A DNA stretch of 64,000 nt from Thermoplasmata archaeon (GCA_034667685.1 JAXDQU010000079.1:44107-108106); one strand, 5' to 3'. Positions 7,936-59,921 are shown, counted from the stretch's first letter. The notes: generated from the sequence alone by a model not told the origin. Made by a program: numbers and translations.

Positions 7936-8597
7936 GCAAGGGGCCCCAGCGACTCCGCGAAGCCGCGCGAGAGCGTCTCCACGAGCTTCTCGCGCGAGAC
8001 GCGCACGCCCTCCTCCGCGAGGCTCGTGACGCGCGTCGTGATATCGCCAGGAGGCGTGCGGAAGAGCCGCGCCATGCGGTCCTCGTCGCGCTCCACGATG
8101 ACCGTGCCGTGCTGGAGGAGCGCCTTGCCGTCGCGCCGCTGCGCCCCGCCGCTGATCTTGCGCCCGTTCACCACGACGTTCGTCCCCTGCCTGCGCACGT
8201 AGCAGAGCGTCTCGCGCGTGTTGTCGGGCACCGTCTCGATCTGCGCGGGGAGGCCCAGGTGCCGCAGCGCGCGCACCACGCCGTCCGACACGAACGCGAA
8301 CGAGCCGGTGATATCACGGGGGAGCCCCGGGTGGTCGAGCGGCAGCACGACGGCGTACGTGACCTCGCTCTCGTTGTGCAGGATCGCGCCCCCGCCCGTC
8401 GCGCGGCGCACGACGTCGAGCCCCCAGGCGCGCGCGGCGTCGAGGTCGACGTCGGCCTCCGTCTGCGAGCGCCCCAGGCTCACCGCGGCCGGGCGCCAGC
8501 CGTACAGGCGCACCGTCGGCGCGCCCTCCGCGAGCAGCGCCTCGTCGCGCGCCATGTTCTCCCGCGCAGGAAGGGGGGCGTCCAGGAGGAGGCGCAT
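7932..8597 (-). CDS. Lipoate-protein ligase / octanoyltransferase (LplA/LipM family)
   Basis: NMARDEALL, VVRRATGGGAILH, RKISGGAQRR, LLQHGT. Confidence 0.92.
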   Translation of the reverse strand: MRLLLDAPLPARENMARDEALLAEGAPTVRLYGWRPAAVSLGRSQTEADVDLDAARAWGLDVVRRATGGGAILHNESEVTYAVVLPLDHPGLPRDITGSFAFVSDGVVRALRHLGLPAQIETVPDNTRETLCYVRRQGTNVVVNGRKISGGAQRRDGKALLQHGTVIVERDEDRMARLFRTPPGDITTRVTSLAEEGVRVSREKLVETLSRGFAESLGPLA

Positions 8598-8683
8598 GCG
8601 GGCCCACGAGGCGGGTCCGACCAAGAAGTTTCCTCAAGCCCGGCCACCAGAACGGCCAAGAGCGCGCACCTTGTGGCACGGAC

Positions 8684-9694
8684 GTGCGAAGGCTTCTGGC
8701 GGCGACGATCGCCCTCGTGGCGCTGGCGGGGTGCCTCACGGCCCCGACCGTCCAGACGGCCCGCGTCGCGCCCCCCGCGCTCCCGGCCTGGCACGAGGCG
8801 ACGCGCCTGCTCGACCTGCCCGCGGGCGACTCGTTCGGCGCCTTGCTCGTCACGTTCGACGCGGGCGACGTGGGCAAGCCGTTCGGCGCGCCCGCCTACG
8901 GGCTCGCGTTCGAGCGCCCCACGATGGGCGACCAGGATTTCATTGAGGCCGACCTCTTCGGCGTCAAGGACGGAAACGCGACGTGGATCGTGACCGGATC
9001 GAGCTTCGGCCATGGCGTCACCGCGCTGAGCCTCCCTCCCCTCGCGGGCGGCGGCCCGCCCACGGCGCTCTTCGTCCTCTTCGCGCACCTGGCCCACGCC
9101 ACGACGCTGCGCGCCGGCGCGTGGACCACGAGCGAGTTCCCGCCGACGCTGCCCAACGCGACCGTCGCCGGCGCATGGACGCGCGCCGGCCCCGCGCAGG
9201 TCTCGTACTTCGTGTCGGGGTATCGCGGCACCGCGTTCTTTTCCGAGAGCCACGACGTCACGCAGTCCGGCACGGGGACAGGCCCGACCGCGCCGCTCTC
9301 CGCGGGCGCGTTCTCCCTCGCCACGCGCCACGCGGCGGGCGGCTTGAGCCTGTCCACCGGCATGGTCCGCCCCACGGCGGGTGCCGGCACCGCGGACGTC
9401 TCGTGGACCTCCGGGGGCAAGACGCAGCGCGGCGCCGCGCCCTTCGCCACCACGCCCGCCGGAGGCCAGATCGCGGACTTCCTCGCGGCGGGCGCCTCGC
9501 CGGACGCGTCGGCCGCGGAGCTCGACCTCACCGGGGCGAGCGCCCTGGACACCGTCATCCTGACGCACGTCACCGGCGACTTCGATGCGGCCGAGCTGGG
9601 CATCGCGGTGACGCCCCAGTACCGCGGACCGGCTTCTCTCCTCGCGACAGGTGCGTGCCTGCGGGCCAGCCCGGCCGCGGCGTGCGAGACCTAG
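8684..9694 (+). CDS. Hypothetical lipoprotein
   Basis: Signal peptide with LAGC lipobox. Confidence 0.7.
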   Translation: MRRLLAATIALVALAGCLTAPTVQTARVAPPALPAWHEATRLLDLPAGDSFGALLVTFDAGDVGKPFGAPAYGLAFERPTMGDQDFIEADLFGVKDGNATWIVTGSSFGHGVTALSLPPLAGGGPPTALFVLFAHLAHATTLRAGAWTTSEFPPTLPNATVAGAWTRAGPAQVSYFVSGYRGTAFFSESHDVTQSGTGTGPTAPLSAGAFSLATRHAAGGLSLSTGMVRPTAGAGTADVSWTSGGKTQRGAAPFATTPAGGQIADFLAAGASPDASAAELDLTGASALDTVILTHVTGDFDAAELGIAVTPQYRGPASLLATGACLRASPAAACET

Positions 9695-9745
9695 GCGACC
9701 CCTGCGCCCGAAAGGCTCTTGGCGGGGTCCCGCCTCGGCAGAAGC

Positions 9746-10651
9746 ATGACCGCCTCCGGCCTCTCGAAGCCGCGCTGGCTGCTGCGTCCCCTGCCCAGCG
9801 GGCCGAAGGTCGCGCAGATCCAGGGCCTTCTTGCGGAGCACGGCCTGCACACGGTGTGCGAGGAGGCGCGCTGCCCCAATCGCGGCGAGTGCTGGAGCCA
9901 GGGCGAGGCGACGCTCATGATCCTGGGCGACACGTGCACGCGCGCGTGCCGTTTCTGCGACGTGGCGACGGCGACGAAGGGGCAGATCCTTCCGATCGAT
10001 CCGCTGGAGCCCGCGAAGGTGGCGAACACGGTCAAGACGCTCGGGCTGACGTACGCCGTCATCACGAGCGTGGACCGCGACGAGCTGGAGGATCAGGGCG
10101 CGGACCACTGGGCGCGCACGATCCAGGCGATCCGCTTCCTCTGCCCCGAGACGGTGATCGACGTCCTTCTCCCCGATTTCCGCGGCGATCGCGCGCTGAT
10201 CCGGAAGGTCGTCGACGCGAAGCCCCACGTGCTCGCGCACAACGTCGAGACCGTGGAGCGCCTGCAGGACAAGGTGCGCGACCACCGCGCGAGCTATCAG
10301 CAGACGCTCGACGTGCTGCGCGCGTTCAAGGAGATGAGCCCGCGCACGCCCACCAAGAGCGGCGTCATGGCGGGGCACGGCGAGACGCGCGAGGAAATGA
10401 TCTCGACGCTGCGCGACCTCCGGGCGGCGGGCGTCGACTTCGTCACCATCGGCCAGTACCTGCGGCCCAGCGAGTGGCACCTCAAGGTCGAGGAGTTCGT
10501 CCACCCCAACGACTTCGTGGCCTACGAGCAGGCCGCCTGGAGCATGGGGTTCAAGCACGTCGTCGCGGGGCCCTTCGTGCGCTCCAGCTACCGCGCGTGG
10601 GAAGTCGAGAAGATCGTGCGCGACGCGCATGGCGCCAGCAAGAACCCTTAA
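9746..10651 (+). CDS. lipA: Lipoyl synthase
   Basis: CEEARCPNRGEC, CTRACRFC, VRSSY. Confidence 0.96.
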   Translation: MTASGLSKPRWLLRPLPSGPKVAQIQGLLAEHGLHTVCEEARCPNRGECWSQGEATLMILGDTCTRACRFCDVATATKGQILPIDPLEPAKVANTVKTLGLTYAVITSVDRDELEDQGADHWARTIQAIRFLCPETVIDVLLPDFRGDRALIRKVVDAKPHVLAHNVETVERLQDKVRDHRASYQQTLDVLRAFKEMSPRTPTKSGVMAGHGETREEMISTLRDLRAAGVDFVTIGQYLRPSEWHLKVEEFVHPNDFVAYEQAAWSMGFKHVVAGPFVRSSYRAWEVEKIVRDAHGASKNP

Positions 10652-10676
10652 GGAATCCTGCCTCGCGTGCGCGCGC

Positions 10677-17503: not shown

Positions 17504-17534
17504 TCTTCATGAGCGAGCCTCCCGAGTCCGCCGC

Positions 17535-20500
17535 GTGGCGTCGCTCCGGCTCGCAGCGCGCATGGCGTGGCGCAACCTCGTGCGCCGCCGCGCGCAGACG
17601 GCCATCGTGCTCGCCGGGCTTCTGGTGGGCACCGCGGTCGTGACCGCCTCGCTCACCGTGGCCGACAGCCTGCGCTACGGCATCCGCAAGGCGACGTACG
17701 ATGGCCTGGGCCCCGCCGACGAGTTCGTGCAGCTCGCCGGCCAGCGCTACTTCCCGCAATCGGCGTACGGCGCGCTCGCCAACGACAGCGCCCTGAGCGC
17801 GGCGAGCCATGCGCTCTCGCCCGTCGTCATCGACGTGGGCAGCGTCCGCGACGCGCGCACGCGCGAGACCGAGCCGGGCGTCGGGCTCGCGGGCTTCGAC
17901 GCCAAGCTCGACGCACCCTTCGGGATGCTGACGCTCACCGATGGCCGGCGCGTGGACGGCAGCGCGCTGGGCCCGAACGACGCCTACCTGCGCGAGGACG
18001 TGGCCCGGCGCCTCGACGCCAAGGTGGGCGACACGCTGGTCGTGGGCGTGCAGCAGGCGGGCCTCCCGCTCACCGACCTCTCGTACCCCGTCTCGGGAAG
18101 CATCAGCGGCGCGGGCGCGGGCTGCCCGACGGCGCCCGTCCCGGTCCCGAACCTGCCCGTGCAGCCGCCCTGCGCGTACACGCCCGACCCGGCCGACAAC
18201 ACCAGCTACACGATCCCCGTGGCGCGCGGCGCGGCGCTCATCACGATCCTGCTGGAGCCCATCGGGCCCGAGGACTCGCCCACGCGCCCCGACCTTGATA
18301 TCATCGCGACCTCGCCCAGCGGCAACCGCACCGCGGCCACGGGCGGAGCGCCCGGCTCGCCCAGCGACCCCGCCGTCCTCCGCATCGAGGGCAACCGCTA
18401 CCTGGAACGCGGCAACTGGATCGTCCAGGTCACGACGAAGGGCGGCGCGGCGGGCAAGTTCACGGGCGCGATCTTCGTCTCCTACGCGCAATACGACGCG
18501 ACCGGCAGCGGCGCGGGCGAGGGCGCGACCGTCGTGGGAGACGCGGACGCGAGCGCGTACCTCGCGGTGGGCGCCAGCAGCGCCGCGCACGCCAACCTCA
18601 CGCTCAAGGGCATCGTCACGCGCGAAGGGAAGGGTGCCTTCCTGGGCACGACGGGCCTCTTCGTCGGCCTCGCCACCGCGCAATCGCTCGTGGGCCAGCC
18701 CGGCATGGTCAACGCGGTCAAGATCAGCAACGCGCACGACGCCGCGCCCCCGACGCAGGCCGCCACGCGCGTGCTCGACGGCCTGCGCGCCGCGAACCCG
18801 GACGATCCGGTCTACGATCACCTCGCGGTCGCGCCCGTGAAGGCGCAGGGGCTCGCCGCCGCCGAGCAGGAGAGCAAGTTCTACCGCGACTTCCTCGCCG
18901 CCGTCTCCACGCTGACGCTCCTCGCGGGCGCGCTGCTCGTCGTGCACGTCTTCATCCTGCTCGCCGCCGAGCGCAAGCGCGAGCTGGGCGCCGCGCGCGC
19001 CATCGGCCTCCAGCGGCGCGACGTCGTGCTGTCGTTCACGATCGAAGGCTTCCTCCTCGCTCTCCTCGCCGCGGCGGGCGGCGTGCTCGTGGGCGTCGCG
19101 GGCGCGGGCGGCGTGCTGCTCGGCTTCGACTACATCCTGAGCGCGGTGGGCACGAACCTCGGCACGTTCGTGCTGCACCCCGAGGCGCAGAGCCTCCTTC
19201 TCGCCGCCGCGCTGGGCTTCGGGCTCACGCTCGCCGCCGCGGCCGGCGCCTCGTGGCGCGTGGGCGGCATGAACCTCGTGCGCGCGCTGCGCGGCCAGGA
19301 AGATGATATCACCGCGCCGCGCCGCTCGTGGACGGGCGTCGCGGGGCTCGCCGTGCTGGGCGCGCTCTCGCTCGCGGCGGGCCCCTTCGCGGCGCTCGCC
19401 TTCGGCCCCGCGTGCCTGATCGGGATCCTCGCGCTGCTGCCGCGCCGCGCGTGGGCCCTCGCGCTGGGCGGGCTCGCGCTGCTCGTCGAGGGCGCCCTCT
19501 CCATCTTCCTCCTGACGCCGCCGGCCGACGCCGCCGGCCGCGTGATGGGCGTCCTGCGCGGCGTGCCCCCCGCGCTGGGCCTCGCGCTCCTCGCGCTCAA
19601 CACCGACGCCCTCGCGCGTGGCGCCGAGCGCGCCCTCTCGATGGTGAAGCGGCTGCGCCCCACCGCGCCCCTCGCCGTGCGCTACCCGTTCCGCCGGCGC
19701 GGGCAGACCGGCCTCACCGTCTCGATGTTCGCCTTCGTGACGCTCGTGCTGGTCTTCTTCAGCATCTTCGGCACGACGTTCGCCCTTGATATCAACGGCG
19801 AGACGGGCGGCTACCACGTCTACGCGACGACGGACGCGCCCTACAGCGACCTGCGCTACGCCTATGACTTGCTGCCCGCGGCGGCGCGCGACCCGTACGC
19901 GCTGGCGAACGTGACCGTCCAGGACCCGTTGCTCGTGGCGACCGTGCCCGGCGGCGACCTGCTGATGCTCGACCACGCGCGGCCGCACTACAAGGGCGCG
20001 CCGGTGGACCGCGTCTACGCGACGCTGCCCGACTTCCCGCGCCGCGAGCAGTTCGCCTTCGCCGAGCTCGACCCGCACTATCCCAACGGGAGCGCGGCGT
20101 TCGAGGCGATCCTCAAGGACCCGACGCTCGCCATCGTCAGCGTCGCGTACACGCTCGACGAGACGGGCAATCCCGGCGCGCACCACGTCGGCGCCGACCT
20201 CGACCTGCGCCTCGCCAGCGGCGAGAAGCACCTGCGCGTCATCGGCGTCATGAAGGAGCTGTACCTGGGCGGCGTGTGGGTCAATCCGCTCGTGTTGCGC
20301 ACCGGCTTCCAGAGCGTGCAGGGCGCCTACCTCCTGCGCACCGCGCCGGGCCACGATCCCGCCGAGGTCGCGCGCCAGCTCGAGCGCAGCTTCGACGGCA
20401 CGGGCCTGCACGCGGTCGACCTCAAGACCGAGGCGGGCACCGTGCTGGAGGAGAACGAGCAGTTCCTCCGCATGTTCCAGATGTTCCTCGGCTTCGGCCT

Positions 20501-21100: not shown

Positions 21101-22087
21101 ATGGAACGAGGCGGGGGCCTGCTGTACCTGTGGCGCCTCTCGCGCCCCGAGGTCTGGCTCGTCACGATCATCCCGATGCACGTGGGCTGGCTCCTCGCCT
21201 CGCGCCAGATCGTGCCGGGCTTCGCTCAGTGGGCCGCGTTCTGGGCGAAGGCCTCGCAGGGCGGCGCCACGAGCGCGGACTTCCTCGCGACGCTCGCGGC
21301 GTGGTGGGGCGACGCGCGCGGCTGGGTCCTCGCCGCGATCGCCATGGGTCCCCTGGTCTGGCTCGCCACGCTTTGCATCAACGACGTGCACGACCTGGAG
21401 AGCGACCGCGCCAACCCGCGCAAGGCGTCGAGCCCGCTCGTGCAAGGCGTCGTCTCGCGCGGCTGGGCGCGCGCGTGCGCGTACCTCGCCGCCGCGGCCG
21501 CGCTCCTCGTGGGCGCGTTCGCGGGGCTCGCCTTCGACCTCCTTTTGCTATCGTGCCTCGTCCTCGCGTGGCTCTACAGCGCGCCGCCCGTCCGCCTCAA
21601 GACGAAGCCGGGCGCCGACGTGCTCGTCAACGCCGTGGGCGTGGGCGCGCTGGCCGCGCTCGCCGGCTTCTCGCTTGCCGCGCCGCTCTCGCAGGCGCCC
21701 TGGCCCTTCCTGCCGCAAGGCCTGCTCGTCGCCGCGGCGGTCTACGTCCCCACGACGATCGTGGACCTGGAGCCCGACCTCGCGGCCGGGTACGCGACGT
21801 TCGCCCCCGCGCTGGGACGCGAGCGAGCCTACCGCGTCGGCTTCGCCTGCTGGATCGCCGCGAACCTCGGCGCCGTCGCGCTCAGCGCCTCTGATATCAT
21901 CCTGCCGCGGCGCATGCTCCCCCTGCTCCTCGTCTTCGCCCCGCTCCTCGTCTGGGAGTACCACCAGTTCATCGGCAAGGCGCGCGACGCGCCCGCCATG
22001 ATCCAGGGCGTCATCCTCTGCTCGCTCAGCTTCGCCGCCGTCAACGCGCTCTGGGCCCTCATGTGGACCGGGCTGTGGATAGGTTGA
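21101..22087 (+). CDS. UbiA family prenyltransferase, lycopene elongase (CrtEb/LyeJ)-like
   Basis: LSRP, NDVHDLESDRANPRK, YSAPPVRLK, DLEPD. Confidence 0.85.
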   Translation: MERGGGLLYLWRLSRPEVWLVTIIPMHVGWLLASRQIVPGFAQWAAFWAKASQGGATSADFLATLAAWWGDARGWVLAAIAMGPLVWLATLCINDVHDLESDRANPRKASSPLVQGVVSRGWARACAYLAAAAALLVGAFAGLAFDLLLLSCLVLAWLYSAPPVRLKTKPGADVLVNAVGVGALAALAGFSLAAPLSQAPWPFLPQGLLVAAAVYVPTTIVDLEPDLAAGYATFAPALGRERAYRVGFACWIAANLGAVALSASDIILPRRMLPLLLVFAPLLVWEYHQFIGKARDAPAMIQGVILCSLSFAAVNALWALMWTGLWIG

Positions 22088-22481: not shown

Positions 22482-24313
22482 TGGTCCTCGGTCGCAAAGC
22501 ACTGCGACACCGCTTCGAGCTCGTAGGCCAGGCCCGTGTTGAGGTCGACGTCCAGGCCGCGGTTGACGCTCGCCTTGGCGAGGCCGACGGCGACGGGCGC
22601 GTTCTTCGCGATCGCGTTCGCGAGCGCCATCGCGCGCTTCATGAGCTCGGCTGCGGGCACGACGTCGAGGACGAGCCCGAGCGCCTTGGCCTCGGCGGCG
22701 TCGAAGCGGCGCGCCGTGAAGATCAGCTCCTTGGCCTTCTGGGGCCCGATGAGGCGCGGGAGGCGCTGCGTGCCGCCGAAGCCGGGGTGGATGCCCAGCG
22801 TGACCTCGGGCAGCGCGAAGAGCGCCTTGTCCGAGGCCAGGATGATATCACAGGCGAGGGCCAGCTCCAGCCCGCCGCCGAACGCGAAGCCGTTGACCGC
22901 CGCGACGACGGGCTTGCCGCACAGCTCCAGCTCGCGGATGGCGCGCTGGCCCAGCTCGGTGAAGCGGCGCGCGTCGGCCACGGTCTTCGTCGCCATCTCC
23001 TTGATGTCGGCGCCCGCGATGAAGGACTTCTGCCCCTCGCCGGTCACGACGAGCACGCGCACCTCGGGGTCCGCGGCCGCGGCCTGCACCTGCTTCTGGA
23101 AGTCCATGAGGACCTTGTTGTTGAGCGCGTTGAGCGCGTCGGGCCGGTCGAGGGTGAGCACGCCGACGTGCCCCTCCTTCTCGAAGCGCACGAGCGGCAG
23201 GTCCCACGGCGCGTTCGCGGCGCCCAGGCGGCGCAGCTCGGCCGCGACCGGGAAGCTCGCGCCCCACTTGGCGTGCAGCTTCTCCACGAGCGCGAGCGCC
23301 CGCTTCGTGCCCATGGCGTTCATCATCGCGAAGGGGCCCTTGGCCCAGCGCAGGCCGACCGTCGCGCCCTTGTCGGTGTCCACGGCGGTGGCGACGCCCT
23401 CCTCGACCAGGCGCGCCGCGATGCCGAACGTGACGCCGAGCAGGCGCTCCTGCACCGCGACGAACTTCGCGGGGTCGGGCGTGCCCGCGAGATCCCAGTT
23501 GGCCTTCGCGACCTCGACCTGGTGGACGAGCTTCGCCGCGGGCGCATACGCCTCGCCGAAGCCCTGGTGCAGCGTGCGCTCGGCGTGCAGCGAGATCGGG
23601 ACGCCGGTGACGTTCATCAGCTCGAAGGGACCCATCGTGATGCCGAACGCCTCCTTCGCCGCGGCGTCGATCGTGCTGATATCAGCGACTCCTTCCTCCA
23701 GCAGCCGGACGGCCTCGTTGACCCACGGCACGAAGAAGCGGTTCACCGCGAAGCCGTACGCGTCCGCCGTCGGGATGGGCACCTTGCCGATCGCGCGCGT
23801 CACCTTCACGAGCGCGTCCGTCGTCGCCGCGTCCGTCTCGCGCCCCGCCACGACCTCGACGAGCTTGTTGACCGCCGCCGGGAAGAAGAAGTGCATGCCC
23901 CCGAACTGGCGCGGGCGGTCGGTCGCCGCCGCGATGTCGGACACCGCGAGCGAGGACGTGTTCGTCGCAAAGATCGCGCCTGGCTTCGCGTGCCTCGACG
24001 CCTCCGCGAAGACCTCCTTCTTGACCTTCAGGTCCTCGAAGACGGCCTCGATCACGAGGTCCGCGTCCTTCACCGCCGCGTGCAGGTCCGTCGTGCCATT
24101 CAGCCGCGCCATGATCGCGTCGACCTCCCCCGCGCTCTGCTTGCCCTGCTCGACGCGCTTGCGAAGCGGGCCCTCGATCCGTGCCCGCCCCTTCTCGACG
24201 AGCTCGGGCTTGACGTCCCGCATCTGCACCTCGAAGCCGGCTTGCGCGAACGCCTGCGCGATGCCCGACCCCATGTTGCCCGCGCCCAGCACGGCGACCT
24301 TCTGGATGGCCAT
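22424..24313 (-). CDS. 3-hydroxyacyl-CoA dehydrogenase / enoyl-CoA hydratase fusion
   Basis: VLGAGNMGSGIA, ATNTSSL, GMHFFFP, MGPFELM; C-terminal crotonase FIAGADI, GGGLELAL, PGFGGTQRLPR. Confidence 0.95.
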   Translation of the reverse strand: MAIQKVAVLGAGNMGSGIAQAFAQAGFEVQMRDVKPELVEKGRARIEGPLRKRVEQGKQSAGEVDAIMARLNGTTDLHAAVKDADLVIEAVFEDLKVKKEVFAEASRHAKPGAIFATNTSSLAVSDIAAATDRPRQFGGMHFFFPAAVNKLVEVVAGRETDAATTDALVKVTRAIGKVPIPTADAYGFAVNRFFVPWVNEAVRLLEEGVADISTIDAAAKEAFGITMGPFELMNVTGVPISLHAERTLHQGFGEAYAPAAKLVHQVEVAKANWDLAGTPDPAKFVAVQERLLGVTFGIAARLVEEGVATAVDTDKGATVGLRWAKGPFAMMNAMGTKRALALVEKLHAKWGASFPVAAELRRLGAANAPWDLPLVRFEKEGHVGVLTLDRPDALNALNNKVLMDFQKQVQAAAADPEVRVLVVTGEGQKSFIAGADIKEMATKTVADARRFTELGQRAIRELELCGKPVVAAVNGFAFGGGLELALACDIILASDKALFALPEVTLGIHPGFGGTQRLPRLIGPQKAKELIFTARRFDAAEAKALGLVLDVVPAAELMKRAMALANAIAKNAPVAVGLAKASVNRGLDVDLNTGLAYELEAVSQCFATEDQKGSMDAFVKKTTWEMRGK

Positions 24314-39509: not shown

Positions 39510-40925
39510 ATGCGCGACGGGTTCTCGGCTGGGGTTTGCGTCGATCTGGGTGCGTTCGATCCGACGCAGGAGGACGCCGGCGCCGGCGCGTGGCTCTCGC
39601 GCGCGCAGGGCGTCCCCACGTGGGTCTGCCTCATGGAGGACCGCCAGCCCGTCTTCTTCCACGAGTACCGGGGCTACGAGCCGGACGCCGTCGCGCCGCT
39701 CAACCGCCACGGGCCGAACAAGCATGCGTGGCGCCAGGCGGACGTGCGCCGGCTCGTCGCCGCCTTCCACGCGCTGGGCGTGAAGGTGCTCTACGGCTAC
39801 TGGCTCCACGAGTGCGCGTGGGTCGACCAGCGCCACCCCGAGCTCCTCATCCGCGACCAGCACGGCGCGCTCTGGCAGGACGAGGTCGAGATGAACGCCG
39901 ACTTCTCCCCGCTGCGGCGCCTGCGCGCGGATCCCGAGCACGACGTGCGCGAGGGCGAGCGCTACGCCGCCTGGAGCGCGCGGCGGTACGCGCAGCTCGC
40001 CCGCGACTTCGGCTTCGACGGGCTCTTCCTGGGCGACGGCGGCATGGGCTTCCGGCGTCACGGCAAGGACTGGAAGGACCTGCGCCACTTCGACTTCCAC
40101 GAGGACTGGACCGCCGAGCTCGCCGCCGACCACGCGTTCGAGCGGCACGCCGGCTGCAAGGTCGGCTCCGCGGACGCCGAGGAGCGCGCCCATGATATCA
40201 AGGCGCACCACTGGGAGCACTGGGTCGCGTTCAACTGCGAGCGCTGGACCGCGTACTACCGCGACGTGGCGGAGGCCGTGCACGCGACGGGCGGCGTCCT
40301 CGCGGCGTACAACTGCATGAACTACGACCCCGCGCTCGCGCGGCTCCACGGCGTCGACTACCGCGGCATCGCCGAGTCGGGCCTTGACATCATGGTCTTC
40401 CAGGCGTACGACTATGCGTGGGGACCGCTGGGGCCGTTCGGCTTCCTGCACATCGCGCGCAAGGACAACGCGACGAACCTCGCCGCGCTCCTGCGCACGC
40501 GCGCCGCCATCGGCCACGACACGCCCATGCGCCTCGTCGTGACGGTGGAGACGGAGGACGAGGTCGAGGGGTGGGACGCTCCCGCGTGCCACACGCTGGG
40601 CGAGCTGCACGCGCTGGGCCACGCGGTCTCGTACGACGGCGAGCGCTGGCGCCGCGCGGCGGACGGCGCGTTCGTCGTGTGGGGCAACTCGGTCCCCGCC
40701 CCCGAGTGGCGCGGCCTCGCCGACGCCTTCGCGCAGCTCTCCGCCGACCCGCCCGTGCCGGTCGCGTCGATGCGCTACGACGAGCGCGAGGCGCACGCGC
40801 ACGCCGCGGACGTGCCCGCCGAGGTCGAGCCGGAGGCGCTCTACGCGCACCTGGACGGCCAGCGCGGCTACGCCATCACGCGCGTCGCGGCCCCGCCGCT
40901 CGCCATCCGGCCCGCGCGGCGCTGA
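39510..40925 (+). CDS. Hypothetical protein, possibly TIM-barrel glycoside hydrolase-like
   Basis: 471 aa; AFHALGVKVLYGYW, HPE, FGFDGLFLGD; Trp/His-rich. Confidence 0.6.
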   Translation: MRDGFSAGVCVDLGAFDPTQEDAGAGAWLSRAQGVPTWVCLMEDRQPVFFHEYRGYEPDAVAPLNRHGPNKHAWRQADVRRLVAAFHALGVKVLYGYWLHECAWVDQRHPELLIRDQHGALWQDEVEMNADFSPLRRLRADPEHDVREGERYAAWSARRYAQLARDFGFDGLFLGDGGMGFRRHGKDWKDLRHFDFHEDWTAELAADHAFERHAGCKVGSADAEERAHDIKAHHWEHWVAFNCERWTAYYRDVAEAVHATGGVLAAYNCMNYDPALARLHGVDYRGIAESGLDIMVFQAYDYAWGPLGPFGFLHIARKDNATNLAALLRTRAAIGHDTPMRLVVTVETEDEVEGWDAPACHTLGELHALGHAVSYDGERWRRAADGAFVVWGNSVPAPEWRGLADAFAQLSADPPVPVASMRYDEREAHAHAADVPAEVEPEALYAHLDGQRGYAITRVAAPPLAIRPARR

Positions 40926-44243: not shown

Positions 44244-46061
44244 GTGCCCACTCACCGCGCGCCCGTGCCCACCACCGCCCGGAGCCTTCTTGCGACCGTC
44301 CGGGAGCGCGCGATCGCGGACCACGGCGCGGTGGGCGACGGGCGCAGCGTCGCGCTGCTCGCCAGCGACGGCACGCTCGACTGGTGGTGCCCCGGCCGCT
44401 TCGACGCGCCCAGCGCGTTCGGCGCGATCCTGGACGCGGAGCGCGGCGGCCACTTCCGCCTCGGGCCCACGGTGGAGGCCGCCAGCCTGATGCGCTACGT
44501 CTCCGACACGAACGTGCTCGAGACGCTCCACACGACCCGCGCCGGGCGCGTGCGCGTCTGCGACTTCATGCCCTTCCCCGACGAGAGCGGCGTCGAGGAC
44601 GCGGTGCTCGTCCGCCGCGTGGAGGGCATCGAGGGCACGGTCGAGCTGGCGCTCTCCTTCCAGCCGCGCTTCGCCTACGGGCAGGTGACGCCGCGCCTCT
44701 CGCGCACGCCCGCCGGCCTGCTCGCGCGGGGCGCCGGCGAGATCATGCTGCTCCAGGCGCCCGAGGCGATCTGCGCGCCCGAGGCCCGCGTCCTGGTCGG
44801 CGAGGGCGAGCGCTTCGACGTCATGCTGCGGCACCGGCCCTTCGACGCGCCCGTGCCGTTCGACGCGCCGCTGGCCGCCTCCCCCGCGCGGCTGGAGGCG
44901 AAGACCGTCGCGCGCTGGCGGGCGTGGAGCGCGCAGACGCGCTTCGAGGGCCCCGAGGCGCCCATGGTCCGCCGCAGCGCGCTCGCGCTCAAGCTCCTCC
45001 AGTACGCGCCCACCGGCGCACTCGTGGCGGCGCCCACGACCAGCCTGCCCGAGGGGATCGGCGGCGTGCGCAACTGGGACTACCGGTTCGCGTGGCTGCG
45101 CGACGCGGCGCTCTGCGCGAAGGCGCTCCAGGACGTCGGGCACGCCGAGGAGGCGCAGCGCTTCACGCGCTGGGTCGAGGCGACGCTGCGCGACCCGGCC
45201 GACATGCGCGTGATGTACACCGTCTCGGGGCAGAGCGACCTCGACGAGCGCGAGCTGCCCCACCTGCGCGGCCACCGCGCCAGCGCGCCCGTCCGCGTCG
45301 GCAACGGCGCGGCCACGCAGCGCCAGCTCGACGTCTACGGCGAATTGCTCGGCTACCTGCGCGAGTCGGGCACCGCCGGCGCCGCGACGTGGCCCCTGGC
45401 GCGCGGCCTGGCCGACCACGTGGCGCGCACCTGGCGCGAGCCGGACAGCGGCATCTGGGAGATGCGCGCCGAGCCGCGCCACTTCGTGCTCAGCAAGGCG
45501 ATGGCGTGGGTCGCGCTGACCTCCGCTGCCCAGATGGCGCGCGAGCAGGGGTTCGCCGGTGATATCACGGGCTGGGAGCGCGAGGCCGACGCGATCCGCG
45601 CGCAGGTCGAGCAGCAAGGCGTCGACGCCCGGCTGGGCTTCGTCCAGGCCTATGGCTTCGCCGCGCCCGACGCCTCGAACCTGCTCCTGCCCATCGTCGG
45701 CTTCGTGGACGCGCGCGACCCGCGCATGCTCGCCACGACGCGCGCCGTCCTCGACAAGCTCACCGCCAACGGCCTCGTCTACCGCTATCACAACGCGGAC
45801 GGGCTGCCCGGCGGCGAGGCGACGTTCGCCTACTGCACGTTCTGGCTCGTCGAGGTGCTCGCCATGCAGGGCGAGACGCAGCAGGCGCGCCAGCTCTTCG
45901 AGGCGCTGCTCGCCCGCGCGACGCCCCTGGGCCTCTTCGCCGAGGAGATCGACGAGAAGACCGGCGAGCACCTGGGCAACTTCCCGCAGGGCTTCCCGCA
46001 CGCGGGCCTGATCGCGGCTGCCTTGGCGCTCAAGCGCGCGGAAAGCTCCGCGCTCCGCTGA
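44244..46061 (+). CDS. GH15 glycoside hydrolase (trehalase/glucoamylase-like)
   Basis: AAPTTSLPE..GG.RNWDYRFAWLRD, QLDVYG, GIWE, FAEE, GNFPQ. Confidence 0.93.
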   Translation: MPTHRAPVPTTARSLLATVRERAIADHGAVGDGRSVALLASDGTLDWWCPGRFDAPSAFGAILDAERGGHFRLGPTVEAASLMRYVSDTNVLETLHTTRAGRVRVCDFMPFPDESGVEDAVLVRRVEGIEGTVELALSFQPRFAYGQVTPRLSRTPAGLLARGAGEIMLLQAPEAICAPEARVLVGEGERFDVMLRHRPFDAPVPFDAPLAASPARLEAKTVARWRAWSAQTRFEGPEAPMVRRSALALKLLQYAPTGALVAAPTTSLPEGIGGVRNWDYRFAWLRDAALCAKALQDVGHAEEAQRFTRWVEATLRDPADMRVMYTVSGQSDLDERELPHLRGHRASAPVRVGNGAATQRQLDVYGELLGYLRESGTAGAATWPLARGLADHVARTWREPDSGIWEMRAEPRHFVLSKAMAWVALTSAAQMAREQGFAGDITGWEREADAIRAQVEQQGVDARLGFVQAYGFAAPDASNLLLPIVGFVDARDPRMLATTRAVLDKLTANGLVYRYHNADGLPGGEATFAYCTFWLVEVLAMQGETQQARQLFEALLARATPLGLFAEEIDEKTGEHLGNFPQGFPHAGLIAAALALKRAESSALR

Positions 46062-46549: not shown

Positions 46550-46831
46550 ATGGCGGGGATCACGCTCACGCTGCCGCGCTCCTTGCGCGACTACTGGGCC
46601 GGGGACCCCGAGGTCCGCCTCGAGGCGAAGACGCTCGCCGAGGCGCTCGCGGAGGTGGGCCGCCGATGGCCCGGCCTCGCCGAGCGCATCCTCGACGACG
46701 CGGGCCGCGTGCGCCCGCACGTCGGCCTCTTCGTCAACGCGCTTCCGGTGATGCACCGCGACCCGCGCGAGGTCGGCCTGGCCGAGGGTGATATCATCCG
46801 CGTGCTGCCCGCCGTGAGTGGAGGATGCTGA
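46550..46831 (+). CDS. MoaD/ThiS ubiquitin-like protein ending GG-C
   Basis: RPHVGLFVN, LAEGDIIRVLPAVSGGC. Confidence 0.88.
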   Translation: MAGITLTLPRSLRDYWAGDPEVRLEAKTLAEALAEVGRRWPGLAERILDDAGRVRPHVGLFVNALPVMHRDPREVGLAEGDIIRVLPAVSGGC

Positions 46832-54189: not shown

Positions 54190-55668
54190 GTGCACGCCGA
54201 CCTGCTCTTCCTCGACGGCCCCGTCCTGACGCAGGACGCGCGCCGCCCCGTCTCGGACGCGCTCGCGGTCGTGGGCAACCGCATCGCGGCGCTCGGGGCG
54301 GAGGCGCGCGCCCTGCGCGGACCCGCCACGCGCGTCGTGGACCTCCGGGGCCGCGCGCTCGTGCCCGGCTTCATCGACGCGCACAACCACCTCGTGAGCT
54401 TCGGGATGCGCCTGATGCGCCTCGACCTCGCGCGCGTCGAGGACAAGGCCGAGCTGCTCGCGGCCCTCGCGGAGCGCGCCGGCATGACGCCCGCCGAAGG
54501 CTGGATCGTGGGCCACTCGTGGGACGAGGCCAAGTGGCGCGACCCCGCGCTCCCCACGCAGGAGGAGCTCGACCGCGCCGCGGGCGGGCGCAAGGCGTTG
54601 CTATCACGCGTCGACCGGCACGGCGGGCTCGCCACCACCGCGGCGCTGCGCGCGGCGAACGTCCAGGCCCACGGACCCTTCGTCGCGGAGGCCGACTACG
54701 ATCCGCTCGTGCGCGCGACCGCGCCGACGCTCCAGACGCTCGTGAAGGCCGTGGCCGCCGCGAGCCGCCGCGCGCACGAGCTGGGCGTCACGAGCAGCCA
54801 CGTCATGTGCGGCGGCGAGGACTTCGCGGCGCTCCAGGCGGCGCGCGACCAGGGCGCCCTGGGCGTGCGCGCCTCGTGCTTCGTCTACGAGGAGCACCTC
54901 GACGCGGCGATCCAGCTCGGCGCGCGCCGCGGGCTGGGCGACGCCTGGGTCCGCCTGCTCGGGCTGAAGCTCTTCGCGGACGGCTCGTTCGGCAGCCGCA
55001 CCGCCGCGATCTCGTTCCCCTTCCGCGACGGCGCGGGCAACGGCATGTTCGTCCACCCCGAGGGGCGGCTCGAATCGCTCGTGAAGCTCGCGCGCGAGAA
55101 GCACCTCCAGGTGGCCGTGCACGCCATCGGCGACCGCGCGGCCCGGCGCGTGCTCGACGCCTTCGAGCTCGCCAACGTGGCGCCCGCCGAGCGCGCCCGC
55201 ATCGAGCACCTGGAGATGGCCGAGGACCATGATATCACCCGCGCCGCGCGCATGGGCGTCGTCGCCAGCGTCCAGCCCAACTTCACCGGCGAGTGGGGGC
55301 ACAAGGGCGGGATGTACGAGGCGCGCCTGGGCTGGGACCACGCGCGCCGGCTCAACCGCTTCGGGGCGTACGCGGAGGCGGGGCTCCCGCTCGCGTTCGG
55401 CAGCGACGACATGCCGCTGGGCCCGCTCTACGGCATCCGCAGCGCGGTCGAGGCGCCCGAGCCCGCCCAGCGCGTCGGCGTCGCGCAGGCGCTCCACGCC
55501 TACACCGCGGGCGCGGCGTTCGCGGGCTTCGCCGAGGACGAGGTGGGCACGCTGCGCGAAGGCCTGCTCGCGGACCTCGTGGTGCTCTCGGCCGATCCGC
55601 GCTCCGACCTCGGCGCGGCGCGCGTGGCGATGACCGTCGTGGACGGGCGCGTCGTGCACGAGGGTTGA
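54190..55668 (+). CDS. Amidohydrolase (YtcJ/Amidohydro_3 family)
   Basis: PGFIDAHNH, KLFADGS.GSRTA, HAIGDRA, RIEH, GSD. Confidence 0.92.
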   Translation: MHADLLFLDGPVLTQDARRPVSDALAVVGNRIAALGAEARALRGPATRVVDLRGRALVPGFIDAHNHLVSFGMRLMRLDLARVEDKAELLAALAERAGMTPAEGWIVGHSWDEAKWRDPALPTQEELDRAAGGRKALLSRVDRHGGLATTAALRAANVQAHGPFVAEADYDPLVRATAPTLQTLVKAVAAASRRAHELGVTSSHVMCGGEDFAALQAARDQGALGVRASCFVYEEHLDAAIQLGARRGLGDAWVRLLGLKLFADGSFGSRTAAISFPFRDGAGNGMFVHPEGRLESLVKLAREKHLQVAVHAIGDRAARRVLDAFELANVAPAERARIEHLEMAEDHDITRAARMGVVASVQPNFTGEWGHKGGMYEARLGWDHARRLNRFGAYAEAGLPLAFGSDDMPLGPLYGIRSAVEAPEPAQRVGVAQALHAYTAGAAFAGFAEDEVGTLREGLLADLVVLSADPRSDLGAARVAMTVVDGRVVHEG

Positions 55669-55725: not shown

Positions 55726-57513
55726 ATGCGCGTGCGCGCGTGGGTCGCCGTCCTGATGCTCGCCCCCCTCCTCGCGCCTGCCGCCGCGGGCGCGTCCGCG
55801 GGCGCGATCGTCGTGACGCTCAAGCCCGCCGCGCACGCCCCTCTTCCTGCCGGCGCGATCCCGCTGGGCGTCGAGCCCGGCTTCGTCCTGCTGCACGCCA
55901 CCGCGCGCGACGCGCAGGCCTGGCGCTCCGACCCGCGCGTGCTGCGCGTGGACCCCGCCGAGCCGCTCGCCTACGCCGACGCGCCCATGTCAGGGGGACC
56001 GCCCGACGACGCGCTGCGCCTGACGCGCGCCACGCCCGACGCGCTCGCCCCCTTCGGCGCGGACGGCCGCGGCGTCACCGTCGCGGTGGTGGATTCGGGC
56101 GTCGACGCAACGCACCCGGACCTCGCGGGGCGCGTCGTGGGCGATTGGCGATTGGTGGACGGACAATTCGTGCCGGCGGCGGGCGACCCCAACGGCCACG
56201 GCACGCACGTCGCGGGCATCGTCGCCGCGGATGGCGCGTCGAGCCAGGGCGCGCACGTGGGCACCGCGCCGGGCGCCTCCATCGTCGCGCTCGACATCCT
56301 CTCGGAGAGCTTCACCACCACGAGCGCGCTCCTGGCCTACGACTGGCTCGACGCCCACCACGCGGAGTACGGCATCCGCGTCGTCGTCAACGCCTGGGGG
56401 CGCGTGGGCGACCCGCGCACGTTCGACCCAGACGACCCGCTCGTGCGCGCCATCGACCGCGTCGTGGACGACGGCGTCGTCGTGATCTTCAGCGCCACCA
56501 ACCACGGGCCCGCCGCCGGCTCGCTCTCCGTCGAGGCGCAGGACCCGCGCGTCGTGACCGTGGGCGCGGTGGACGACGCCGCCATCGTCACCCCCTACTC
56601 CTCGCGCGGCCCCGTCGCCGCCACCGTCGCGGTCACGTGGACCAAGCCTGACGTCATGGCGCCCGGCGAGTCGATCGTGGGCCTGCGCAGCCAGGAGACG
56701 GCGCCCAACCCGAGCATCGACCCCGACCCGCTCCACCGCGTGCTATCAGGAACGAGCCAGGCCGCGCCGCACGTCGCGGGCGTCGTCGCGCGCATGCTCG
56801 ACGCGCAGCCCGACCTCAAGCCGCTCGACGTCCTGCGCGCGCTCCGCGCCAGCGCCGTGGACCTCGGCCCGACGGGCCCCGACGACGGCTACGGCTACGG
56901 CCTGCTCGACGCGCCCGACGCGCTGCGCGCCGCCATGGGCGAGCCGCTCCGCCGCGACAACCCGCTCGCGGCCGGGGGCGACGCGCGCTACGACGACGCG
57001 GCCCAGGTCGCCGCCACGCCCACCGGATTCCTCGGCCTCACGCCCGAGCAGAGCGACGTCTGGAAGACCACGTTCCCCGTGCAGCCAGGCGCCACGGCCA
57101 TCGGCTTCGAGCTCGACGCGCCCAGCCTCGCGCAGGGGCTCGAAGCGCGCCTCGAAGGGCCGCGCGGCGGAGGCGGCGCCTGGACCGGCCCGACGCAGGA
57201 AAGCGGACAATCCGTGCTGCGCGGCCGCCTCGACGGCCCCGAGCCGGGCACGTGGACGCTGCACGTCCGCGCCGCGCTCCCCGCCAGCGCGCAGCTCGCG
57301 AGCCACGTCGACGTGCAGCTGGGCCGCAACCTCACGCGCCTCGCGCCGCTCGACCCACGCGCCCGCGCCCCCGACGCGCCCGAGCAGGGCTCCTCGCGCG
57401 CGCTCTCCGACGTGCTCGTCCTCGCCGGCGACCACGCCTGGGCCGCGCCGCTCGCCGCCGCGTTCGTGGTCGCCCCCTTCGGCTGGCTCGCCTGGCGCGC
57501 GCGCAGGGCCTAG
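55726..57513 (+). CDS. Secreted S8 subtilisin-like protease with C-terminal membrane anchor
   Basis: VVDSG, HGTHVAG, SGTSQAAPHV catalytic triad. Confidence 0.92.
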   Translation: MRVRAWVAVLMLAPLLAPAAAGASAGAIVVTLKPAAHAPLPAGAIPLGVEPGFVLLHATARDAQAWRSDPRVLRVDPAEPLAYADAPMSGGPPDDALRLTRATPDALAPFGADGRGVTVAVVDSGVDATHPDLAGRVVGDWRLVDGQFVPAAGDPNGHGTHVAGIVAADGASSQGAHVGTAPGASIVALDILSESFTTTSALLAYDWLDAHHAEYGIRVVVNAWGRVGDPRTFDPDDPLVRAIDRVVDDGVVVIFSATNHGPAAGSLSVEAQDPRVVTVGAVDDAAIVTPYSSRGPVAATVAVTWTKPDVMAPGESIVGLRSQETAPNPSIDPDPLHRVLSGTSQAAPHVAGVVARMLDAQPDLKPLDVLRALRASAVDLGPTGPDDGYGYGLLDAPDALRAAMGEPLRRDNPLAAGGDARYDDAAQVAATPTGFLGLTPEQSDVWKTTFPVQPGATAIGFELDAPSLAQGLEARLEGPRGGGGAWTGPTQESGQSVLRGRLDGPEPGTWTLHVRAALPASAQLASHVDVQLGRNLTRLAPLDPRARAPDAPEQGSSRALSDVLVLAGDHAWAAPLAAAFVVAPFGWLAWRARRA

Positions 57514-57692: not shown

Positions 57693-58622
57693 TCATCGTG
57701 GCGTCGGGCGGGCCGTCTTCTGAGCGGCCTCGGCGACCGCGCGCCGCACCGTCTCCTCGATCGTGGGCACGTGGCCGAAGACCTCGCGCTGGAGACGCGT
57801 GTCGGCGACGTACTTGCCCGAGCCGAAGTAGCGCGCCATTGCCGTCATGTCGCGCCGGCGCGCCTCGCCCGCCGCGTCGTCGCCGCCCCAGCGCTGCATC
57901 GCCGCGTCCGGCTCCGCGAGGCGGATCTCGCGCCCCGCCTCCGCCGACACGAGGCGCGCAAGCTCGCGCAGCGTCACGGGCCGGTCGGAGCCCACGTCGA
58001 TCTTCCTCCCCTCGACGCCGCGCGCGTCCACCGCCTGCGCCAGGAGATCGGCGACCTCGTCCGGGTGCACGTACGTCCACGCGACGTCGGGCGGGCCGAA
58101 CGCCAGGATCGCGCCGCCCGCGAGCTGCTGGGTCCACCACGGGCTCCCGCCCAGGTACGCGCCCGGCCGCAGCGACACGGCGGGCACGCCGCTGGCCGCG
58201 AGGTGGTCCTCCGTGAGCTTCTTCGCCCAGAAATGGGGCACGCTGGGCGCCTGGTCCGCCGTCAGGATGCTGGTGAACACGAAGCGCCGGACGCCCGCCG
58301 CATGCGCCGCGTCGACGAGGCTCCGGTTGCCCTTGATATCAACGGCCTCGATCGAGTCGCCCGGCTTGCGCATCGAATAGCCGATCGCCGTCGTCACCAC
58401 CGCGTCCACGCCGCGCAACGCCGCCGGCAACGTCTCCGGCCTCGTGAGGTCGCCGCGCGCGATCTCCACCCCGCGCGCCTCGAGCGCGCCCGCCTCCGTG
58501 CCCGCGCGCACCAGCGCCCGCACGCGCTTCCCCCGCGCGAGAAGGGCGTTCACGACGCGGCTGCCGAGGTTGCCGGTGGCGCCCGCCACGAGCACCGGGC
58601 CCTGCGAGTCCGAAGCGGTCAT
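57693..58622 (-). CDS. NmrA/SDR family NAD(P)-binding oxidoreductase
   Basis: VLVAGATGNLG, GVRRFVFTS, HFWAK. Confidence 0.9.
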   Translation of the reverse strand: MTASDSQGPVLVAGATGNLGSRVVNALLARGKRVRALVRAGTEAGALEARGVEIARGDLTRPETLPAALRGVDAVVTTAIGYSMRKPGDSIEAVDIKGNRSLVDAAHAAGVRRFVFTSILTADQAPSVPHFWAKKLTEDHLAASGVPAVSLRPGAYLGGSPWWTQQLAGGAILAFGPPDVAWTYVHPDEVADLLAQAVDARGVEGRKIDVGSDRPVTLRELARLVSAEAGREIRLAEPDAAMQRWGGDDAAGEARRRDMTAMARYFGSGKYVADTRLQREVFGHVPTIEETVRRAVAEAAQKTARPTPR

Positions 58623-59247: not shown

Positions 59248-59316
59248 CGTCGACCAAGGCAAGTTTCAAGGCGTCGCGGCCGGTCATGCGAATGCCGGCC
59301 CGCGCGCCAGCGAAAC

Positions 59317-59389
59317 AGCCCCATGGTCTAGTGGCCAATGATTCGGGACTTTGGATCCTGCGACCTCGGTTCGAATCCGAGTGGGGCTA
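59317..59389 (+). tRNA. tRNA-Gln(TTG)
   Basis: AGCCCCA/TGGGGCT acceptor, CGGGA-CTTTGGA-TCCTG anticodon arm, GGTTCGAATCC. Confidence 0.95.
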
Positions 59390-59468
59390 TGCTCGGAGCG
59401 CAGCGACGAGCATCGCCCCGCGAGGATGAGGCCGAACCGCAGTTCGGCCGGAATCCGAGTTGGGCTAT
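59373..59468 (+). mobile_element. Mini hairpin insert duplicating the tRNA-Gln 3' end
   Basis: GAATCCGAGTGGGGCTAT (59373), inverted copy (59407-59427), hairpin GGCCGAACCGCAGTTCGGCC, then GAATCCGAGTTGGGCTAT (59451). Confidence 0.75.
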
Positions 59469-59482
59469 CAAAATCGTCGCGT

Positions 59483-59776
59483 TCAGCACGTGTCCAGGAT
59501 CCACGTGGGGCCGCCGCCGGTCAGGCAGACGTAGGCGATGGGGCCGTAGGTCTGCGGGTCGATCCAGGGGCAGTGGGTCGTGAGGACGCAGACGGGGCCG
59601 TCGTTGCCGACGGTGTAGCCGTCGATCGTCTTGTTCTCGGTGCAGGCGTAGACGACGCCGAAGTTCTGGATCCAGATGATCTGGGTGCAGTGGGCGGGGA
59701 TGCCGATGCTGGCGCTCGCGGCGGGAAGGGTGGCAAGGGCGGCCAGGAGGGCGAGGAGGGCGAAGGTCGGTCGCAT
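59483..59776 (-). CDS. Small secreted 6-Cys protein
   Basis: Signal peptide ending ASA; 6 Cys including the C-terminal residue. Confidence 0.7.
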   Translation of the reverse strand: MRPTFALLALLAALATLPAASASIGIPAHCTQIIWIQNFGVVYACTENKTIDGYTVGNDGPVCVLTTHCPWIDPQTYGPIAYVCLTGGGPTWILDTC

Positions 59777-59921
59777 GCGTCCCGCGGATGGGCGTGGGGG
59801 ACAAGAACGTGGTGGGCAGCGGCGAGGTTGCATGCCGCCGCGGCGCGGCCGGCCCGGACGCGCGCGTGGGGCAGCATGCTATCAAAAAAGAAAGGCAGGG
59901 GCGCGTGGCCCCCACGGGCGC

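Follow-up and report, generated by a model that had tools for sequence, protein, structure and literature searches.

The window analysed here is a 64,000-nucleotide stretch of a Thermoplasmata archaeon (GCA_034667685.1, JAXDQU010000079.1:44107-108106) and forms part of contig C79 in an assembly of 3.48 Mb and 124 contigs with a guanine-plus-cytosine (GC) content of 71.1%, hereafter genome G000 of genus g1, a genus of GC-rich, uncultured archaea from soil. Scattered through it is an AT-rich palindrome of eight base pairs, TGATATCA, present in 12 exact copies where 0.06 were expected from dinucleotide shuffling, together with seven copies of a variant, TGCTATCA or its complement TGATAGCA, where 0.16 were expected; none of 100 shuffles reached 12 in the first case or seven in the second. 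An earlier description of this DNA, made from its letters alone (the sequence-only reading), had given positions for all 12 palindromes and all seven variant copies, and every one was matched exactly. The eight one-mismatch copies that it named were all among the 18 found in the window, with the small correction that the one placed at 51474 starts at 51475, and its figure of about 73% GC was slightly high for the genome, the window itself ranging from 0.709 to 0.761 per 4 kb.

Gene calls were made with a simple codon-usage caller of our own (3070 genes, 81% coding). By these calls, all but one of the 12 palindromes and all but two of the seven variant copies lay inside genes, in agreement with the mostly coding location that had been claimed. 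The first palindrome, at 8309..8316, fell outside the calls. Three were carried by an FtsX/MacB-type permease gene at 17412-20861 (+), at 18296..18303 (CTT GAT ATC ATC, LDII), 19304..19311 (GAT GAT ATC ACC, DDIT) and 19787..19794 (CTT GAT ATC AAC, LDIN), and one by a UbiA prenyltransferase gene at 21101-22084 (+), at 21892..21899 (TCT GAT ATC ATC, SDII). Two lay in a 3-hydroxyacyl-CoA dehydrogenase/enoyl-CoA hydratase (FadB-like) gene at 22427-24502 (-), namely 22843..22850 (TGT GAT ATC ATC, CDII) and 23677..23684 (GCT GAT ATC AGC, ADIS). The copy at 40193..40200 (CTT GAT ATC ATG, LDIM) was found in a gene at 39378-40850 (-) that matched no Pfam family at E 1e-5, that at 45560..45567 (GGT GAT ATC ACG, GDIT) in a GH15 glycoside hydrolase gene at 44244-46058 (+), and that at 46789..46796 (GGT GAT ATC ATC, GDII) in a small open reading frame (ORF) at 46550-46828 (+). 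The copy at 55230..55237 was read in the second permitted frame (GTG ATA TCA TGG, VISW) of a gene at 54888-55412 (-), and the last, at 58334..58341 (GTT GAT ATC AAG, VDIK), lay in an NmrA-like gene at 57696-58937 (-).

Among the variant copies, an M20 peptidase gene at 29099-30169 (-) held TGCTATCA at 29203..29210 (+) and 29554..29561 (+), which read on the gene strand as GGT GAT AGC ACG (GDST) and GGT GAT AGC ATG (GDSM). The copy at 32359..32366 (-) read as CTG CTA TCA AAC (LLSN) in an amino-acid kinase gene at 32002-32829 (-), and TGCTATCA at 35937..35944 (+) read as CTT GAT AGC ACC (LDST) on the strand of an HMGL-like/homocitrate-synthase-like gene at 34828-35967 (-). The copies of TGCTATCA at 54599..54606 (+) and 59877..59884 (+) fell outside the gene calls. 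In an S8 subtilase gene at 55726-57510 (+), TGCTATCA at 56741..56748 (+) read as GTG CTA TCA GGA (VLSG), directly 5' of the GTS motif of the catalytic Ser; the placement of GTG CTA TCA beside that residue was thereby borne out, the protein reading ...VLSGTS... in the Pfam S8 subtilase family, and the other codon contexts quoted earlier (CTT GAT ATC, TCT GAT ATC and GGT GAT AGC) were correct as well. By Pfam, the twelve genes of the window that bear the motif shared no functional theme.

The excess extended to the whole genome. In G000, TGATATCA ranked first among all 8-mers, with 378 copies where base composition predicts 4.0 (94-fold), while TGCTATCA (173) and its complement TGATAGCA (156) gave 329 copies, 16-18 times the expectation. 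CGATATCA and TGATATCG occurred in 82 copies each, 8 times expected. The palindrome thus reached a density of 109 per Mb, and 203 per Mb with the variant, whereas at 71% GC chance would provide about 1 copy of TGATATCA per Mb. All 55 contigs of at least 20 kb carried a site.

About three quarters of the copies were inside genes, whose functions were unrelated to one another. When synonymous codons were shuffled within genes, TGATATCA was expected 7.2 +/- 2.1 times (maximum 13 in 100 shuffles) and observed 280 times in coding sequence; for the variant, the expectations were 9.3 and 2.0 against 189 and 73 observed. A dicodon null, built as a first-order Markov chain over codons and conservative in that its counts already include the motif, predicted 10.3 copies of NNT GAT ATC ANN and 3.6 of NNT GAT AGC ANN, against 250 and 67 observed, and the three-codon forms stood 2.6-3.4 times above it. 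In the 648 kb of non-genic DNA outside the gene calls, 98 copies of TGATATCA were counted against 0.97 expected, an excess of about 100-fold. The excess is therefore as strong outside genes as inside and is not a coding effect. Since it was neither confined to the window nor lost under amino-acid- and dicodon-aware nulls, the claim of a genome-wide signal at the DNA level that opposes codon preference was supported.

Within genes, the palindrome was used on both gene strands and in two frames, NNT GAT ATC ANN (250 copies) and NTG ATA TCA (30 copies), which are the two frames free of the stop codon TGA. Asp-Ile pairs followed by a codon starting with A used GAT in 56% of cases, against 5-18% before other bases, and the codon preceding Asp-Ile-(A..) ended in T in 50%, against 7-14% with other following bases. 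Because the use of GAT and of T-ending codons depends on the following A, the unit is the full 8-mer and not a codon pair. Occupancy of the compatible peptide contexts was higher where fewer changes separate the context from the word: Cys-Tyr-(His/Gln), written as TGC TAT CA, was occupied in 31 of 32 cases and Asp-Ile-(A..) in 250 of 554, followed by Asp-Ser-(A..) (67/421), [Leu/Met/Val]-Leu-Ser as xTG CTA TCA (151/982) and [Leu/Met/Val]-Ile-Ser (30/292). The xTG CTA TCA form was written with rare codons, which make up 1% of Leu codons and 2% of Ser codons. Position inside genes was roughly uniform, and compatible-site occupancy was 39-59% over all classes of third-position GC content (GC3).

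The variant followed a rule of its own. Ala-Ile-(A..) and [Leu/Met/Val]-Ile-Ala would yield an identical double-stranded variant, yet they were nearly unused (7/670 and 6/708). In the frequent variant forms, coding fixes the TGCT/AGCA half and the free half is a perfect ATCA/TGAT, whereas in the rare forms the intermediates would have both deviations in one half. Of the left halves that can precede ATCA, 256 in all, only TGAT (27-fold) and TGCT (6.6-fold) stood out, the next best reaching 3.9-fold, and the double variant TGCTAGCA was present in 3 copies. A table of the flanks of the 6-mer core showed the TATCA side to be essential, while the other side allowed TGA (94-fold), TGC (17-fold), AGC (6.6-fold) and an outer C (8-fold). 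One-base deviations clustered, with a C at one end in 164 sites and at position 3/6 in 329. By inference, such a half-site pattern would be expected of a symmetric dimer with non-additive tolerance. AGCTATCA/TGATAGCT were also enriched in G000 (130 copies, 6.6-fold), and CGCTATCA was at 2.7-fold, which suggests that the tolerance of the left half is graded rather than a matter of two discrete words.

No flanking base was conserved in the 10 positions on each side of TGATATCA, where codon periodicity alone was visible; a miniature inverted-repeat transposable element or repetitive extragenic palindrome (MITE/REP-type repeat) was ruled out by this lack of conservation beyond the 8-bp core. An apparent depletion of precursors such as TGCTACCA, seen against an expectation of independent halves, was gone against a maximum-order Markov model (4 versus 5.1) and was dropped.

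Along the genome, the palindrome and the variant gave 707 sites, one per 4.9 kb. The 595 gaps within contigs were exponentially distributed (coefficient of variation 1.0), with a mild deficit below 200 bp. In G000, no three sites fell within 250 bp and no tandem rows were seen. Copies outside genes had no preferred distance to gene starts, and the spacers that held copies (38 of 574 divergent, 30 of 390 convergent and 94 of 1298 tandem) showed no bias; the absence of positional preference ruled out a transcription-factor regulon, a promoter element or a terminator element. A polar signal of the Chi type or of the FtsK-orienting type (KOPS) was also ruled out, as the word is self-complementary and the variant occurs in both orientations (173 versus 156), its orientation bias relative to genes flipping between frames. 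Two contigs of lower GC content were significantly poor in sites, C42 (66.4% GC; 3 versus 12.7 expected) and C118 (67.4% GC; 7 versus 16.5 expected). The latter encodes, at about 30000-42500, a DUF499 ATPase, a DUF1156 methyltransferase-like protein of 1055 amino acids and an SNF2 helicase with a NOV_C domain, a cluster that looks like an acquired defence island.

The word was restricted to a single genus. Fifteen genomes of the order were compared, five of them from genus g1 (G000 and G001-G004), and all five were rich in TGATATCA (378, 210, 141, 111 and 53 copies), the density of the motif falling in the order G000 > G003 > G002 > G001 > G004. The other 10 genomes, from nine genera, held 0-7 copies, and the reversed word used as a control gave 0-2. 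The variant, in both orientations, was counted 72, 229, 151 and 63 times in G001-G004 and 5 times in G007, which represents a sister genus. In a 386-kb sample of G003, TGATATCA was the top 8-mer (26 versus 0.37 expected), whereas a 366-kb sample of G007 with 70.8% GC contained no copy and no replacement palindrome. In those more distant genomes of the phylum that had 8-52 copies, the control counts were higher too. G030, of the same phylum, had 215 copies; since its 107-kb sample was 48.9% GC, with a modest enrichment (13 versus 1.75, about 7-fold) and the word absent from its top 8-mers, it was rejected as a second case, its enrichment being probably a codon effect. As a separate observation in the same genomes, a GC-rich palindrome, CGACGTCG, was enriched 10.9-fold in G007 (167 in 366 kb) and 3.8-fold in G003 (63 in 386 kb), with 1058 copies in G000. 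DNA near-identical to G000 was present in two other soil samples.

The history of the sites was followed in protein-anchored codon alignments between G000 and G003 (468 genes, 446 kb, with 80.8% nucleotide and 79% amino-acid identity), which replaced a DNA-level window orthology against five relatives that was too fragmentary. In the direction from G000 to G003, 14 of 65 palindrome sites were identical (22%), no more than the 19-23% of control words in the same frame (two rare W-ending codons, 208/1076; two T-ending codons, 94/404). In a codon conservation test that follows Xu et al. (PMC5861425), the motif codons of G000 were no better kept in G003 than the same codons elsewhere (GAT, 20/59 versus 191/668; NNT, 16/59 versus 1055/3731), and the Ile codon of the motif was less conserved (32/59 versus 3678/5133, p 0.005). 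Where the two genomes differed, G003 showed the common-codon form CGACATCA at 7 sites, CGACGTGC (Asp-Val) at 5 and CGACCTCA (Asp-Leu) at 3. The residue opposite the motif Ile was Ile in 32 of 59 cases, Val in 13, Leu in 8 and another in 6, while Asp-Ile pairs lacking the motif kept their Ile in 169 of 228 cases (p 0.004).

Asp-Ile-(A..) contexts were also more numerous in G000 when the same aligned columns were counted, 112 versus 77 in G003 and 21 versus 9 in G007, and occupancy in the conserved genes was 59/95 in G000 and 25/65 in G003. The outgroup G007 had a different amino-acid context at 7 of the 8 G000 sites that it covered. Taken together, these comparisons indicate that most G000 sites were gained after the split from G003, partly through conservative amino-acid replacement, and that sites once made tend to persist. 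A path made of transitions only (C-to-T and G-to-A) was dropped, since TGCTCTCG in G003 opposite TGCTATCA needs transversions.

The enrichment, the grammar, the indifference to frame, strand and gene function and to whether the DNA is coding, the limitation to one genus, the random spacing and the recent net gain are all observed. The signal is young and still accumulating, and it overrides codon preference and conservative amino-acid choice. We consider TGATATCA to be a lineage-specific highly iterated palindrome, comparable to cyanobacterial HIP1 (highly iterated palindrome 1), that has accumulated by a directional process independent of position, and we give this explanation a probability of about 55%. 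A location-blind process fits better than sites required at defined places because the word is indifferent to frame, strand and gene function, randomly placed and young.

A factor that arose or was activated in genus g1 would read about 8 bp of double-stranded DNA symmetrically, a protein dimer being the simplest candidate. Its action would amount to a weak, persistent pressure that favours the word at every position of the genome, whatever the location, so that point mutations bringing a site nearer to the word would be retained more often than others. Biased repair or gene conversion could have this effect, as could a preference for word-bearing DNA in uptake or recombination, or a small gain in fitness per site; in population-genetic terms the three would resemble one another. 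Accumulation would have proceeded first through rare synonymous codons (NNT GAT ATC A, xTG CTA TCA and TGC TAT CA) and also through conservative replacements, for example Val or Leu to Ile. At a site with TGCTATCA, coding would then hold one half at TGCT/AGCA, and the pressure would have made the other a perfect ATCA/TGAT, and the binding preference predicted by the grammar would be TGATATCA > TGCTATCA >> TGGTATCA.

Of the options listed in the sequence-only reading, a HIP1-like palindrome proved the best fit. As two papers describe them, HIP1 (GCGATCGC) and the alternate highly iterated palindromes of cyanobacteria are in 15-300-fold excess, and HIP1 reaches 300-2700 copies per Mb and is cyanobacterial and nearly phylum-wide (PMC4390886; PMC5861425). 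According to these papers, a methyltransferase for the word or for an internal sequence is present when a HIP word is abundant (Elhai 2015, PMC4390886), and HIP1 exceeded controls in conservation in each of eight genome pairs tested and recurs with a periodicity of 10-90 kb (Xu, Lawrence and Durand 2018, PMC5861425). The proposals for its role include methylation-linked repair (PMC4390886), chromosome structure (PMC5861425) and DNA uptake (PMC13756078). Like HIP1, the archaeal word is a perfect 8-bp palindrome and the top 8-mer of its own genome, here in 94-fold excess; it is found both within and outside coding sequence, in several frames and despite codon preference, with enriched one-off variants, is restricted to a lineage, differs strongly in density between relatives, and has no agreed function or mechanism. 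It differs in being AT-rich where the genome is GC-rich, in having GATATC at its core in place of the GATC of HIP1, and in belonging to one genus of archaea, where HIP1 belongs to cyanobacteria with DmtA/DmtC methylases. Its density of 109 per Mb (203 with the variant) is lower than the 300-2700 of HIP1, no cognate methyltransferase was found, and in one direction of one genome pair its conservation was not above control, compared with eight of eight pairs. The archaeal assignment is consistent with the primase PriS and archaellin genes of G000. A search of open-access papers and preprints found no report of an iterated palindrome or an uptake sequence in archaea, in agreement with the earlier statement that no such motif was known to be described for Thermoplasmatota.

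Several points weigh against this explanation. From G003 to G000, 14 of 29 sites were identical (48%), against 22-25% of controls (p 0.008), and the motif codons of G003 were better conserved in G000 (GAT, 17/25 versus 194/444; NNT, 13/25 versus 1058/3376). The conservation check suggested by the sequence-only reading thus gave control-level retention in one direction and retention above control in the other, which keeps selection in play. At the 40 sites compatible in both genomes, the word co-occurred 14 times against 10.2 if independent (odds ratio 6, p 0.02), a modest excess that could reflect site-specific selection or shared ancestry. Drive and weak uniform selection would look alike at the level of sequence. 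The samples were also limited: one relative represented by 1.17 Mb, about a third of its genome; gains polarised with an outgroup at 8 sites; a crude gene caller; and spacing tested at short range, in an assembly of 124 contigs whose largest is 167 kb.

The search for a reader of TGATATCA weighs in the same direction, as no candidate gene that tracks the word was found among the families searched. The C5 methyltransferases of G000 comprised an orphan of 314 amino acids on C63 (C63:5378-6319), which adjoins the PriS gene and has no nuclease neighbour, one on C103 and a fragment on the mobile-looking contig C51. An orphan SPPY-type methyltransferase (N4/N6 type) of 352 amino acids, also without a nuclease neighbour, was found at C106:108905-109960, and the other N4/N6-type match, on C97, was weak. 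Searches with the D12 and N6_Mtase families returned weak matches only, and no convincing EcoRV-type D12 methylase was found, the one weak match lying within the C118 island. The C63 and C106 enzymes had orthologues across the order, including motif-free genera with 0-7 copies of the word, and the variable region of the C63 enzyme showed no genus-specific change; being conserved order-wide, their presence does not explain a genus-specific word. The C103 methyltransferase had only sporadic, distant homologues in relatives. No homologue of Vsr was found in G000, and the MutS-like and NucS genes were present in motif-free sister genera too. Likewise, G000, whose completeness is rated at 99%, had 0 matches to bacterial-type ComEC (Pfam Competence) and DprA (DNA_processg_A). 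A ribbon-helix-helix reader was rejected on a search with RHH_1, the only such family used, as none of the five matches had a site (with at most one mismatch) within 1.2 kb and no tandem rows were found. In the window, an ORF of about 90 amino acids at 4405-4500 (+) matched Pfam RHH_1 weakly (E 0.0017) and had no motif-like site within 1.2 kb.

Two routes, an uptake or recombination tag and methylation-linked repair, appear roughly equally likely as sub-mechanisms within the directional accumulation proposed above. By the first, word-bearing DNA would be preferentially imported and the word would spread by molecular drive, as a self-recognition tag. The uptake signal sequences (USS) of Pasteurellaceae and the DNA uptake sequences (DUS) of Neisseriaceae are lineage-specific top oligomers with preferred frames in genes and an influence on peptide content, scarce in foreign DNA and attributed to molecular drive, not to a role of each single site; they are non-palindromic, denser, and dependent on a competence machinery with a sequence-specific receptor. 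Reportedly, a bioRxiv preprint (10.1101/2024.09.10.611283) assigns a DNA-uptake role to HIP1. The archaeal word has the genomic signatures of such a tag: it is a top-ranked, lineage-specific oligomer spread evenly through the permitted frames of genes and through non-coding DNA, it has graded one-off variants and has reshaped peptide content, it is scarce in the lower-GC, probably acquired contigs, and an AT-rich word with about 1 chance copy per Mb would be very distinctive in DNA of 71% GC. An uptake hypothesis has moreover been published for HIP1 (PMC13756078). The fit stops at the machinery and at the form of the word, since bacterial-type ComEC and DprA were not found, the word is palindromic and the known uptake sequences are several-fold denser, and the literature searched yielded no archaeal uptake sequence. 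That the word is a tag of this kind is a tentative and rather improbable reading. So is the further proposal that it might be the first archaeal example of a signal for uptake or self-recognition, with a genus-specific protein recognising TGATATCA on incoming or recombining DNA, which we regard as possible though doubtful; if true, drive would have overwritten about half of the compatible codon contexts, and altered amino acids as well, in the time that one genus has existed.

By the second route, which is Elhai's model for HIP1, an orphan methyltransferase would mark the word or its GATATC core and a repair activity, methyl-directed or specific for mismatches, would resolve near-copies toward the word. 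A perfect palindrome is of the type recognised by Type II methyltransferases, two orphan enzymes (C63 and C106) lack a nuclease partner nearby, and the concentration of deviations at the outer positions and at position 3/6 recalls the end-biased deviations of HIP1 described in PMC4390886. The tie to a methylase or to repair that the sequence-only reading had attached to a HIP1-like palindrome was nevertheless not demonstrated: the two enzymes are common to the order, motif-free genera included, with the C5 variable region unchanged, and Vsr was not found, while MutS-like and NucS genes are not genus-specific. The deamination products TGATATTA/TAATATCA were also not in excess (1 site versus 0.7 expected, both orientations). 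On this evidence, methylation-linked repair is an unlikely source of the word.

Selected binding sites of a nucleoid-associated or chromosome-organising protein would account for some of the same features, and Xu et al. read HIP1 in this way, arguing that it is selected and tied to chromosome structure (PMC5861425). A symmetric 8-bp word with one tolerated half-site variant resembles the binding site of a dimer, and the retention of G003 sites in G000 (14/29 versus 22-25%) points in the same direction. The retention of G000 sites in G003 (14/65) was no better than that of controls, the density varies more than six-fold within the genus, the sister genera have none, and the near-saturation of one-step sites (31/32) exceeds the need of a spacing function. 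The matS, parS, Noc and SlmA sites are, similarly, short palindromic protein-binding words able to lie inside genes. A chromosome has between a few and about a hundred of them, all within a single region, whereas the 707 sites of the archaeal word are exponentially spaced, lie on every contig of at least 20 kb and form no clusters of three or more. An organisation site of the matS/parS/Noc type, as put forward in the sequence-only reading, was thereby not supported, and the wider class of selected architectural sites is improbable.

The alternative that there is no sequence-specific reader, and that the word results from a bias in codons, dipeptides or context-dependent mutation or from a small mobile repeat, is hinted at by the 250 of 280 coding palindromes in the frame NNT GAT ATC A, as an Asp-Ile codon-pair effect might produce, but it is effectively refuted and very improbable, as the excess survives amino-acid-, codon- and dicodon-preserving nulls and is equal outside genes, GAT and the preceding T-ending codon are favoured only before A, the flanks are unconserved, and a sister genus of equal GC lacks the word.

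In about thirty years, no function or mechanism has been agreed on for iterated palindromes such as HIP1, whose nearly phylum-wide presence, leaving little contrast to exploit, is part of the reason. The same kind of signal is now seen in another domain of life, where it is young, limited to one genus and graded in density over five species. Since the word is present in all five g1 genomes and absent from sister genera of equal GC, the causal gene should be findable by comparative genomics, and the motif-free sister genera together with the six-fold gradient make a natural comparative experiment tighter than any for HIP1. The case also shows how strongly a pressure at the DNA level overrides codon preference and protein sequence against genome composition. 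In practical terms, the word sharply marks off native from acquired DNA, and it could also be used as a signature for binning or classifying genus g1.

Some minor observations were made on the contigs and enzymes named above. On contig C103 (8376 bases) lie genes for a Cdc6/Orc-like AAA+ protein, for an anti-restriction protein of ArdC type that has a zincin peptidase domain, and for the C5 methyltransferase, which runs off the contig end; the contig is probably a plasmid or an integrated element. Among the strong matches of the C106 methyltransferase in relatives, 8 of 13 had one in-frame stop (TGA, TAG or TAA, depending on the genome), most likely because the alignment overruns a shorter C-terminus. 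Finally, two pairs of one-mismatch copies 39-40 bp apart were found, CGATATCACCA twice at C17:50831-50877 and GGATATCA/CGATATCA within an AT-rich spacer at C109:23237-23284, and these could be local repeats of operator type with no relation to the genome-wide signal.

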